Source of the DNA: a virus
Lineage: Duplodnaviria > Heunggongvirae > Uroviricota > Caudoviricetes
Virus record (IMG/VR): IMGVR_UViG_2713896798_000009
Strand: one strand, 5' to 3'
DNA length: 14,996 nt
Positions 1 to 3,480 of the stretch are shown one piece after another (position 1 is the stretch's first letter; every line of letters begins with the position of its first letter). A model generated the notes under the pieces. That model did no database searches. It was not told the DNA's origin and saw only the letters and a program-made list of their open reading frames with translations. The translations under genes and the position numbers were made by a program.

Positions 1-165
1 ATGGCAAAGCCGATCATCACGCTCAATGGCCTAAAAATCGTCATTATGTTGGGAATGCTGGTCATTATTCTCTGCGGTATCCGTTTTGCCGCCGAGATCA
101 TCGTGCCGTTTATTCTCGCATTATTTATTGCTGTTATATATAACTTATTTAACTTAACTAATTGA
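1..165 (+). pseudogene. tqsA: 5' fragment of an AI-2E family transporter gene (TqsA-like). About 45 codons of a membrane-protein N-terminus ([45 protein letters not shown]), then the frame runs into AT-rich non-coding sequence and stops at 163-165.
   Basis: ATG at 1-3; hydrophobic N-terminus that I recall as TqsA/YdgG (recalled, not searched); reading frame ends after 9 unrelated codons; abrupt switch to AT-rich sequence at about 135-200. Confidence 0.45.
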
Positions 166-244
166 TTTAATTAAATAATTTGCACCACAAAAAGTGCCAA
201 AAATCGCAAAATGACTACACCAGTGACTACACCGTTCGGTGCAC

Positions 245-275
245 TGTATGAAACAACGTGGAACAAATAGACACA
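245..275 (-). promoter_or_regulatory. Copy L of a repeated motif (core AACAACGTGGAAC on the plus strand; reads TTGTTCCACGTTGTT on the minus strand) with flanking TTGT-type repeats
   Basis: Exact 13-nt core at 252-264 is identical to 7749-7761 and to the reverse complement of 13699-13711; flanks are also similar. Confidence 0.4.
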
Positions 276-596
276 AGAAATATAAAGGCGGGTCATCTTT
301 CCAGGGGGAAGCGCACCAATTCATGAGGGGCGTTAATGTCGATATGGGGATCCCCACCTACCGGAATTTTTTTCCGGTTAAACGTTAATCAGGCTGGTGG
401 GCTTTACATACCCTTGATCACGGTAATGATGATTCAGGTGCGTACCTTTTCCCCAGTGGGGTAAAAGCTCCAACCGTAACGATGTTCGTTGTGGTTGCCT
501 TGATGGTCTGCGTGGTCATTATGACCATTCAGAATTTGAAGGGTGATGTTTCCGATCTCCTCAAATTGAGGTTGCCGGAAATATCAACGGGTTAGG

Positions 597-889
597 CCAG
601 AGTGCAAATTTGCACTCTGGAACAATTCCAACCAGTAATCAGCGCAATTTTGCGCTTTGCTTTAAGTTCAGCGAGTAACCGAAGGCGGAATTCCGCCCTC
701 GGTACTCACATATGAGAAACGATATTTCTTCCACCGATACCCTTTATTTGGGTATCGCGAGTAAGCCCCAAAATCTGGGTGTTACTCTTACTACCCAAAC
801 TACGGGTATTTTCCGTAATTTCATGGTCGAGTTGCAGATCTGCAACTCACCCACCAGCCAACGCAATTTTGCGCTTTGCTTTAAGTTCA
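597..889. repeat. Cluster of distinct palindromes plus a 28-bp direct repeat, lying between the last packaging gene and the left junction
   Basis: Perfect 24-bp palindrome 597-620 (ccagagtgcaaatttgcactctgg); near-perfect 24-bp palindrome 679-702; hairpin 735-757 (cgataccc/gggtatcg); perfect 20-bp palindrome 829-848 (gagttgcagatctgcaactc); 28-bp direct repeat cgcaattttgcgctttgctttaagttca at 643-670 and 862-889. Confidence 0.6.
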
Positions 890-894
890 ACCAG

Positions 895-1176
895 TTACCG
901 CCGTAACCGCTCCGGCTTCTTCCAGTGGTACGTAATTTTTGCTTTTTCCCTGTACGTCTGCACGCGGCGACGGTAGGCCAGCATTTCAAGAACGCGGATC
1001 CGTATGTTGCGCATATCCACATCATTAAGCTGGATACCATCACGGCGCATCACCTCAGCAACAACTCGCGCATAATTTTCGGCGGTCACGCTGTCCGGCT
1101 GCGTGGCCTGTTCGTCATGCTGCTGGCTGATTCCAGAGACGCGGCGGATTAATCGCAGTATTTCGGCTTCTGTCAT
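895..1176 (-). CDS. hypothetical protein (93 aa), last gene of the packaging operon
   Basis: ATG at 1176 with GAGGT RBS about 7 nt upstream; 13 nt downstream of the terL stop; no family recognised. Confidence 0.5.
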   Translation of the reverse strand: MTEAEILRLIRRVSGISQQHDEQATQPDSVTAENYARVVAEVMRRDGIQLNDVDMRNIRIRVLEMLAYRRRVQTYREKAKITYHWKKPERLRR

Positions 1177-1189
1177 GCTGCTGACCTCA

Positions 1190-2851
1190 TTACACCCCGC
1201 TAAATTCTTCCAGTTTCTGGCGGTGGCTGTCGCTTATATCAAAAGCAAAATTCTCATGCTCTGCCTGGAATGTACCAAACGCCATCAGCGCCGCTACGCT
1301 CGGGTCTATCTTGTTCGGTGATTTTTTCTTGTTCGGCTTGATATTGGCGTTCGCGTCACTCTGCATCACGACGTTACTCATCGACCAGGACAACACCGGA
1401 TCGCCACGATGCACAATCACCCTGCGGTTAACAAAAACTTCGAACGATTTCGCCGCCGGACTGAATCTGAGGTAGGTTTGCGGGAACGGCTCCACCTCAA
1501 AACCAGCCCCCTGTAATTGCGTTCTCAGGTGCGTGGCGTTCCACGTATCAAAGCCCACCAGCCTGATATTAAATTTCTCCGCATCCTGCATGATGTCATC
1601 TCTGATCCGGTCGTAATCAATGCAGTCACCTGGCGTTGTGCGTATCCAGCCCGCTTTAGCCCACTGGCGATAGACAGCGCGGTTTTTATTGGCGGGGTTC
1701 TGTAGCTGGAACTCCGGCAGATAATGACGGGAAATCAGCATAATGGTTTTACCAACCGGAAAGGCATAGCACACGCTGGAAATATCGCTGGTTGATGATA
1801 AGTCCAGCCCCGCGTAACACTCCTGCCCGTGTAAATCTTCCTCCGTGAACGTTCCGGCACACTCAGCCCATGCGCCGTAACCCATCCACGGGGTAGCCCC
1901 CTGGCACCAGATATTAAATCGCTTTGTCATCATCTCCACCCATTGCGACGGAATACCCCGCGCTTTCTGGATGGTTGAGGCCAGTTTTTCACGATCCACG
2001 GAAACATCGATGTTAGGGTTAGCCTTTATCCACATCGCCGGATCATCAACCTCGTTTTCGTCGTCCAGCTCGTAAATCAGCACAAAAATTGAATCGTTGA
2101 CCTCTTCGCCGTCCAGGATCTGGCAGCAATAATCATAGTGCTGTTTACAGGCTGAAACGACGTTACTGCCCGATGTGGTAATGGCAAATAACAGCCCTTC
2201 GGGACGTGCGCCCATCCCCAGCTCAAGCGCGGAATAAACGCCGTTATCGGGGTGTAGGTGGTATTCGTCCACGATGGAAAGGCTTGGGTTTGTGCCCTCG
2301 ATGGTTGCCGCTTTTGCTGCCAGCGGCTTTAACAGGCTGTTGCTTTTCGGGTGCATCACCTTGTGGGCCTGAATATTCACCCGCCTGCGTAACGGTCGGG
2401 ATAAAAGGCACATCTGACGCGCATCATCAAAAACGATCCGCGCCTGGTCACGGCTCACCGCTGCGGTGTAGATATCCTGCTGCCCGTTCTCCATAATCAG
2501 AAACCAGTTAGCCAGAATCGCGGCGGTCGTGGATTTCGCATTTTTGCGCGGCACTTCGATAAAGGCGCTCGTGTATTTGCGCCGTCCGGTGGCCTTAACC
2601 TTAAAGCCGAGGATGCACGCAAAGGCGAACTGCTGCCACGGCTCCAGCTCAATGGGTCTGCCACGCATCGGCCCTTTTACGTGCGGGCACACCCTGGAAA
2701 AGGCAATAAACCGCTCCACGACCTCACGATCGAACGTATAAAGGGGGTTTTTAAGGTCAGAAAAGTACCGTTTAACGGCCTGTTTCAGCCGTTTACAGGC
2801 CGGAATTTTGCCCGTTTTTACGTCTTCTGCGTACTTATTCCAGGCGGTCAA
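1190..2851 (-). CDS. terL: terminase large subunit (HK97-like Terminase_1 type)
   Basis: 553-aa ORF; Walker A-like VPRKNAKST; typical TerL N-terminus and C-terminal nuclease region; TTG start at 2851 overlapping terS by 17 nt with a purine-rich RBS. Confidence 0.9.
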   Translation of the reverse strand: MTAWNKYAEDVKTGKIPACKRLKQAVKRYFSDLKNPLYTFDREVVERFIAFSRVCPHVKGPMRGRPIELEPWQQFAFACILGFKVKATGRRKYTSAFIEVPRKNAKSTTAAILANWFLIMENGQQDIYTAAVSRDQARIVFDDARQMCLLSRPLRRRVNIQAHKVMHPKSNSLLKPLAAKAATIEGTNPSLSIVDEYHLHPDNGVYSALELGMGARPEGLLFAITTSGSNVVSACKQHYDYCCQILDGEEVNDSIFVLIYELDDENEVDDPAMWIKANPNIDVSVDREKLASTIQKARGIPSQWVEMMTKRFNIWCQGATPWMGYGAWAECAGTFTEEDLHGQECYAGLDLSSTSDISSVCYAFPVGKTIMLISRHYLPEFQLQNPANKNRAVYRQWAKAGWIRTTPGDCIDYDRIRDDIMQDAEKFNIRLVGFDTWNATHLRTQLQGAGFEVEPFPQTYLRFSPAAKSFEVFVNRRVIVHRGDPVLSWSMSNVVMQSDANANIKPNKKKSPNKIDPSVAALMAFGTFQAEHENFAFDISDSHRQKLEEFSGV

Positions 2852-3191: not shown

Positions 3192-3480
3192 GCTTATTTT
3201 TTCGCCAGATTATTTTTCAAAAAATTACCGTGCATAAAAATTTGGGGAGGCGGTCGGTTCTGGGCGGGGTCGGGTTCGTCCTGAAAACTCCCCCCACCCC
3301 GTCCGGCTGCCTCATCAGCGATTGCGGAAACATTCCATAACCTCGCGGTCACGGTCGTTTAATCGCGTCGCTGTGATGCGTTCTGCGCGTCCTGATGCTT
3401 TATCTTTATGCCCTGTTTCCTGTGCCTTCCATGCGTCACGCTGCCTTATAAGTCCACGGATAAGGCGGTTTTGTTCCCGC
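3192..3480. other. candidate cos / packaging-initiation region between the HNH and terS genes
   Basis: 289-bp non-coding gap in an otherwise tightly packed, overlapping operon; G-tract-rich segment about 3240-3310 (ggggaggcggtcgg...gggcggggtcggg...ccccccacccc); the HNH-cos-TerS-TerL arrangement is typical of HK97-like cos packaging. Confidence 0.3.

Follow-up and report, generated by a model that had tools for sequence, protein, structure and literature searches.

The tqsA attachment junction of a capsid-forming PICI in Escherichia coli, with putative integrase and AlpA sites

Overview

Positions 1–360 of the window (the whole 14,996-nt stretch of DNA analyzed here, IMG/VR virus record IMGVR_UViG_2713896798_000009) very probably represent the int-distal attachment junction of a capsid-forming PICI (cf-PICI) of about 15 kb, inserted by its own tyrosine integrase at codon 45/46 of tqsA. 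Judged by its sequence features, the structure is a normal and apparently working att junction, and the satellite family it belongs to is already known.

The junction in tqsA

The window opens with the 5′ fragment of tqsA (1–137, + strand; codons 1–45/46), recognized by its identity to intact TqsA and annotated by PGAP as a partial “pheromone autoinducer 2 transporter.” The first-pass annotation had described a TqsA-like frame of about 45 codons running into unrelated AT-rich DNA and stopping at 163–165, and this description is accurate. In the ORF at 1–165 (+ strand), residues 1–46 are identical to TqsA of an island-free strain and are followed by eight unrelated codons and then TGA at 163–165, while G+C content is 44% in 1–136 and 20% in 137–200, compared to 50% for the whole window. 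Island DNA begins at position 138.

A three-way alignment of the intact tqsA of strain CEC15, the window junction, and the int-side junction yields a 9-bp identity block, TGCTGTTAT, at 129–137. It is common to attB and both junctions, which bears out the attachment-site junction proposed in the first-pass annotation and sets the core duplication at 9 bp. The int-side junction of the window's own island lies beyond the window and was read from two genomes, E. coli SCPM-O-B-9504 (locus L001) and FORC_028 (locus L005), which have an identical Int protein accession and each of which is a 100% match to one window end. The second copy of TGCTGTTAT is at window-equivalent 15187–15195 (L001 35187–35195), 191–199 bp past the window end; the other att site is thus beyond 14996, as had been expected with int at the opposite end. 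The core copies at the two island ends are identical, and the distance between them is 15,058 bp (an island of ~15.06 kb).

The occupied site was surveyed with a 171-nt probe across the int-side junction, compared to 5,426 complete E. coli genomes. The full junction is present in about 247 of these (about 4.6%); in the rest, more than 5,000 genomes with K-12 MG1655 among them, the alignment begins only at probe position 83, where the block starts. It had been considered that 136–360 might be native host DNA, found also in an island-free strain, but 138–360 was not found in any island-free tqsA locus of the complete E. coli genomes searched. Sequence like window 161–420 occurs at other loci only within related islands at other att sites. 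The insertion position and the TGCTGTTAT boundary are the same in L001, L005, L129, and L130, and the three independent tqsA islands among these are of differing type, L001/L005 and L130 being cf-PICIs and L129 a classical PICI. An O157:H7 genome has the same cf-PICI architecture and the same tqsA junction.

As read from both junctions, tqsA is simply split, and the island brings no substitute 5′ end. The suggestion that the 5′ end of the gene might be reconstituted at the far junction did not hold, because in-frame TGA TAA precedes the tqsA 3′ part there (translated as K, two stops, and NAVILNPLVQHM). A rebuilt or fused 5′ end was rejected for the same reason: the arm ORF is in frame, but closed by these stops. 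The next in-frame Met at the int side is residue 54, past the first hydrophobic segment, and a consensus scan of the int-proximal arm found no sigma-70-like promoter. Disruption of the coding sequence without an attP-borne replacement is seen in several independent tqsA elements, both cf-PICI and classical PICI. Precise excision would be expected to restore tqsA, as implied by the identity block; the attB sequence expected across the core of an uninterrupted tqsA is ...TTATTGCTGTTATTCTTAAC....

Two ORF calls overlap the arms. In L001, PGAP predicts a 60-aa “hypothetical protein” (34999–35181) that spans the int-proximal arm in full and overlaps the start of int; this is probably a false gene call in DNA that serves for protein binding. 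The 67-aa ORF at 154–357 (− strand), overlapping the int-distal arm, was also judged spurious, since it matches no Pfam or PHROG family and is un-annotated by PGAP in related genomes.

The island and its variants

The gene order in both L001 and FORC_028 is mdtJI, ydgV, tqsA 5′ fragment, 15-kb island, tqsA 3′ part, and pntBA. Within the island (L001, L005), all genes except two small ones are transcribed toward the left junction. PGAP annotation of the near-identical islands gives, in order, an integrase, an AlpA-family HTH protein, an Icd-like protein, primase, SSB, and PerC; an HK97-type major capsid protein, prohead protease, portal, and head closure and connector proteins; and an HNH endonuclease, TerS, TerL, and a 93-aa protein. 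It includes no tail or lysis genes. By its size and predicted gene set the island is a cf-PICI, an assignment made because the gene set matches that of capsid-forming PICIs (bioRxiv 10.1101/2022.09.08.507074).

Window 1–1200 is 100% identical to L001, and FORC_028 is 100% identical to window 11800–14996. Identity of the window with NZ_CP144930 was rejected, as the sequences part ways after position 12365. Because the match to L001 is lost after that position and FORC_028 differs from the window at about 160–190, the window is, on these alignments, a mosaic variant of one ~15-kb cf-PICI, the third after the L001 and FORC_028 versions. The accessory segment at 12365–13170, which lies between the Icd-like gene and alpA, varies among these otherwise near-identical islands (window, L001, and L005). 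A 340-aa ORF at 12146–13168 was considered as a possible defense gene and rejected: PADLOC gave no match, and the small Icd-like gene of the annotation makes up the C-terminus of the ORF.

Toward the left end, the 93-aa protein (895–1176, − strand) belongs to PHROG 1561 (E = 1e-56) and has no Pfam match; its gene is the final one ahead of the int-distal arm in all five islands checked, classical and cf-PICI. Window 585–905 is densely packed with strong hairpins, at least six of them, and has a perfect 12+12 palindrome at 597–620, a 53-nt direct repeat at 629–681 and 848–900, and RNA fold z-scores of −10.3 (+ strand) and −9.4 (− strand). Two of the hairpins resemble + strand terminators. The region is mosaic among related islands and gave no Rfam or phage match; possibly the hairpins are terminators insulating the island operon and the host tqsA promoter from one another. 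A structured RNA in 1–1300 was rejected, with no Rfam family at gathering score (tfoR reached 16.5 bits, against a 70-bit cut-off).

Core sites and spacer

The attP arms can be aligned in all related islands, and the 25–35 bp around the crossover differ. Placed in a common register, which rests on comparing four site classes, every attP has inverted A/T-rich sites about a 7-bp spacer: TGATAAAA-TATGTCC-TTTTATCA for phoQ/roxA, GTTATAAAA-ATCCGCT-ATTTATAAC for yifB, and TGATAAAA-TGCTGTT-ATATATAAC for tqsA. The probable overlap (crossover) region in the window is thus TGCTGTT, at 129–135. A putative core-type integrase site C′ (ATATATAAC) follows at 136–144 (+ strand); it is proposed as the inverted partner of TGATAAAA across the overlap in attP.

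The spacer of 20% G+C between the core and the arm motif contains an exact match (AATCAATTAGTTA) to the IHF consensus WATCAANNNNTTR, at 155–167 on the − strand. This consensus has five matches in the 41.2-kb locus, where 1.9 are expected, so the match is weak evidence when taken alone; its TTGAT core is conserved in related islands.

Doubled motifs in the two arms

The first-pass annotation had noted a tandem repeat near 212–235 and read it as part of a junction with short direct repeats. The repeat is there, as two exact copies of TGACTACACC at 212–221 and 224–233 with a 12-nt period, but it is not a target duplication; it is an arm motif some 80 bp from the core. In the full form ATGACTACACC-AGTGACTACACC (211–233, + strand), the doubled motif provides putative arm-type Int sites for the int-distal arm. 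Only four exact copies of TGACTACACC occur in the 41.2-kb locus, as two pairs, one per island end and co-oriented. With one mismatch allowed there are six matches (1.35 expected), a number reached in none of 100 shuffles. The second pair sits 25–47 bp upstream of the int start. Measured from the core center, the copies of the window arm start at +81 and +93; those of the other arm start at −152 and −140, and the inner one ends at −133; by motif centers the distances are about 90 and 144 bp. The doubled motif of EcCICFT073 is at the same distances from its core.

The conserved arm block around the motif (199–277, + strand) is nearly invariant in islands of four att-site classes, with diverged neighboring sequence, and some genomes (H72–H74) match solely this block within the region, at 91%. 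A scan of genome contigs with ACTACACCNNNNACTACACC returned, among the matches listed, only scattered chance matches in unrelated phyla, its 16 specified bases being too few for 596 Gb.

A doubled motif has been described in the attP of HE-PICIs, at 81 and 132 bp from the center, with the Int arm domains or AlpA proposed as binders; the binder (Int, AlpA, or another protein) was left open (PMC10111431). In the tqsA-type island, the most likely role of the pair is that of putative arm-type integrase sites.

RAACAA units and AlpA

A further motif copy (L) noted in the first-pass annotation was also found; we take it to be the pair ATGAAACAA/GTGGAACAA at 248–266 (+ strand), two units with 10-bp phasing that are putative sites at which an AlpA-family protein would act in regulation, in excision, or in both. 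Exact matches to GTGRAACAA number four in the 41.2-kb locus (0.87 expected), a count reached in one of 100 shuffles, and all of them are either in the two att arms or 50–80 bp downstream of the int stop. In the window, an array of three to four nnGnAACAA units, again with 10-bp phasing, is found at 13688–13733 (− strand), directly past the int stop and upstream of alpA. All six related islands compared have an equivalent array (L003, L004, L006, L007, and L129 among them), which makes it a candidate AlpA operator and/or recombination-directionality site.

The AlpA-family gene itself (13229–13417, − strand) encodes 62 aa and matches PF05930 (E = 1.3e-16). The AlpA of EcCICFT073 acts as an activator of its own promoter and, when overexpressed, leads to int-dependent excision and replication (PMC6092414); the AlpA family also includes bona fide excisionases (PMC11773190). 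From these two precedents we infer, by analogy, that the RAACAA units of the att arms, like those at the alpA promoter, may be bound by AlpA.

Integrase and target switching

The integrase gene (13779–14996, − strand) encodes a tyrosine integrase with an N-terminal arm-binding domain (PF13356, E = 7e-19; PF00589, E = 2e-15). Its ORF is intact, with Arm-DNA-bind_3 (PF13356, residues 8–95), central, and catalytic domains. PGAP places the GTG start 15 nt past the window end, and the start is about 184–190 bp from the int-side core.

Integrases 82–92% identical to this one occupy three other targets: the phoQ/roxA intergenic region (EcCICFT073 and O157:H7), yifB (L006), and an IS110 transposase gene (L007). 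The set shows one PICI integrase lineage, retargeted several times with its arm architecture retained. Residues 1–60 of Int are 100% identical among three tqsA-type islands and 68–73% identical to those of the phoQ, yifB, and IS110 types; outside these residues, Int of the tqsA type is 94–95% identical to that of the phoQ type. The segment encoding these residues (window ~14830–14996 and beyond; compared in L001, L003, L006, L007, L128, and L129) behaves as a swapped module. The flank of the arm motif changes along with the Int N-terminus, from GTGACTACACC in the tqsA type to TTAACTACACC in the phoQ, yifB, and IS110 types; this co-variation, which amounts to a single evolutionary split between two groups, is suggestive of Int as the binder.

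A circular form with an intact attP

IMG/VR contains a single exact match to the attP junction as predicted, GATAAAATGCTGTTATATATAAC, on the 11,098-nt contig UViG_3300045988_152974 (L128). A direct repeat of 119 nt at its termini marks the assembly as circular, and the contig represents a circular classical PICI of ~10,979 bp whose int is of the tqsA type and whose attP is intact. Here int, the int-proximal arm, core, and int-distal arm run uninterrupted, and they align to the 347-nt attP reconstructed from L001 at 97.1% identity, colinear and gapless. A recombined attP is thus, by its assembly, present in nature as a circular element in this sibling tqsA-type island. The contig ends coincide exactly with TGCTGTTAT, which is where a branching of the assembly graph between integrated and excised forms would have put them.

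Proposed mechanism and other readings

The arrangement suggests a mechanism in which strand exchange would take place within the 7 bp TGCTGTT, with TGATAAAA and ATATATAAC as inverted core-type sites on either side in attP. Bending of the DNA by the AT-rich spacer, with its IHF consensus, would let the Arm-DNA-bind_3 domains hold the doubled GTGACTACACC motifs, at ~80 bp from the core in the window arm and ~133–152 bp in the int-proximal one, while the catalytic domains act at the core. An AlpA-family protein on the RAACAA units, in both arms and upstream of alpA, would couple island induction to excision, and precise excision would leave tqsA restored. An int-attP segment of EcCICFT073, with an Int 92% identical to that of the window, does integrate (PMC6092414).

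The roles of the two motifs could be distributed differently. It is possible, but rather unlikely, that the doubled TGACTACACC is bound by AlpA or some other DNA-bending factor and that the RAACAA units have another use, for example as transcriptional operators. AlpA or an unknown protein has been offered for the analogous HE-PICI motif (PMC10111431), AlpA-family proteins can be excisionases (PMC11773190), and a doubled motif 25–47 bp upstream of the int start is in a place that would suit a regulator too. The flank of the doubled motif, however, co-varies with the N-terminal domain of Int, and tandem sites on either side of the core are classic for heterobivalent integrases. Further, it is the RAACAA units and not the doubled motif that recur upstream of alpA, where AlpA acts in EcCICFT073 (PMC6092414). 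Assigning the doubled motif to Int and the RAACAA units to AlpA seems the better reading.

Whether the junction is still in use can also be asked. A pseudogene is present in the accessory region of L001, the closest complete genome, as might be seen in an island that has become fixed, its repeats functionless relics. Such a fossil is very improbable, given an intact int ORF with all domains, identical core copies at both ends, an arm block invariant across diverged islands, as under purifying selection, and the circular attP form of a sibling island in IMG/VR; the site, filled in just about 4.6% of genomes, has occupants of several types, which points to repeated recent integrations. The repeats at 212–266 might instead be thought to belong to a replication origin or a packaging (cos/pac) signal, since iterons are typically short phased repeats and classical PICIs have cos sites toward this end of the island. 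That idea is scarcely credible, because in every island the repeats flank the core on either side, and their distances from it are constant. PICI origins, moreover, adjoin pri-rep (PMC6092414), and a lambda-type cosN is missing from the window; in EcCICFT073 it is about 900 and 1,640 bp further in. Window 325–400 was considered as a lambda-type cos and rejected, with no phage-record match and no cosN-like 12-mer anywhere in the window at two mismatches. By analogy with HK97, the cos site of a cf-PICI is presumably between the HNH and terS genes, around 3192–3314.

Relation to known systems

The attP sites of lambda, P4, and KplE1 serve heterobivalent integrases and combine arm sites and IHF sites with sites for Xis, Vis, or TorI. 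The junction shares with them a 7-bp overlap between inverted core sites, a spacer that is AT-rich and IHF-like, tandem repeats in each arm, and phased units that are putative sites for a small winged-helix factor; its arm sites also overlap the region upstream of int, as they do in KplE1. It differs in that the site sequences are dissimilar and that binding and directionality control are, for the window, predicted.

EcCICFT073 (PMC6092414) is a closer comparison. Its arms are ~90% identical from about window 161 on, with the same layout of doubled motifs and the same RAACAA array upstream of alpA. It differs in its phoQ-roxA site, its core (AAATATGTCC), the flank TTAACTACACC, the first 60 residues of Int (73% identical), and the lack of a capsid-forming module. 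The HE-PICI motif (PMC10111431) is likewise a tandem doubled motif of 8–11 nt, present twice, co-oriented and asymmetric, at 81/132 bp compared to about +80/−133 bp near edges here, although this agreement varies with the reference points chosen. It is unlike the window's in sequence (TGTATTGC vs. ACTACACC), integrase clade, and targets. The same study reports the HE-PICI motif to be absent from other PICIs; the window's motif is not described in it.

The prototype cf-PICI is EcCIEDL933, for which phage HK106 is a helper. The members of this family (bioRxiv 10.1101/2022.09.08.507074) are similar to the island in size (~15 kb), in gene set, and in having no tail or lysis genes. EcCIEDL933 is induced in a helper-dependent manner and forms its own small capsids, which are joined to helper tails (same preprint). 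The name tqsA does not appear as a target in the PICI literature searched. Two surveys (TIGER, PMC7192596; Bobay et al., PMC3603311) do list it, along with yifB, with the conserved genes that integrative elements split and leave unrestored, and both genes have been put forward as candidates for “regulated gene integrity” (PMC7192596). The unrestored splitting in these surveys (PMC7192596, PMC3603311) is like that seen here and in the yifB island; unlike here, the arms were not dissected and the elements were not assigned to cf-PICIs. The cf-PICI family and tqsA as a disrupted target are therefore both already published. The details of the arm sites appear to be unpublished for this integrase group, as a variation on a published theme.

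A more comprehensive scheme can be put forward only tentatively, and is doubtful as a whole. The layout of doubled motifs (~80/~133 bp) and phased RAACAA units could be an attP blueprint that the PICI integrases of enterobacteria have in common whatever their clade, in which arm specificity is swapped along with the first ~60 residues of Int; AlpA could be both master activator and recombination directionality factor via the same units; and insertion into and excision from tqsA could form a reversible switch of AI-2 export, tied to helper-phage induction.

Current understanding is unchanged by these results. What they add is an exact boundary for a cf-PICI, in an AI-2 exporter gene that the island knocks out in about 5% of the E. 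coli sequenced, Shiga-toxin-producing lineages among them, and concrete candidates for the sites of AlpA and for the arm and core sites of the integrase in a satellite family that is used for engineering (PICI-based delivery).
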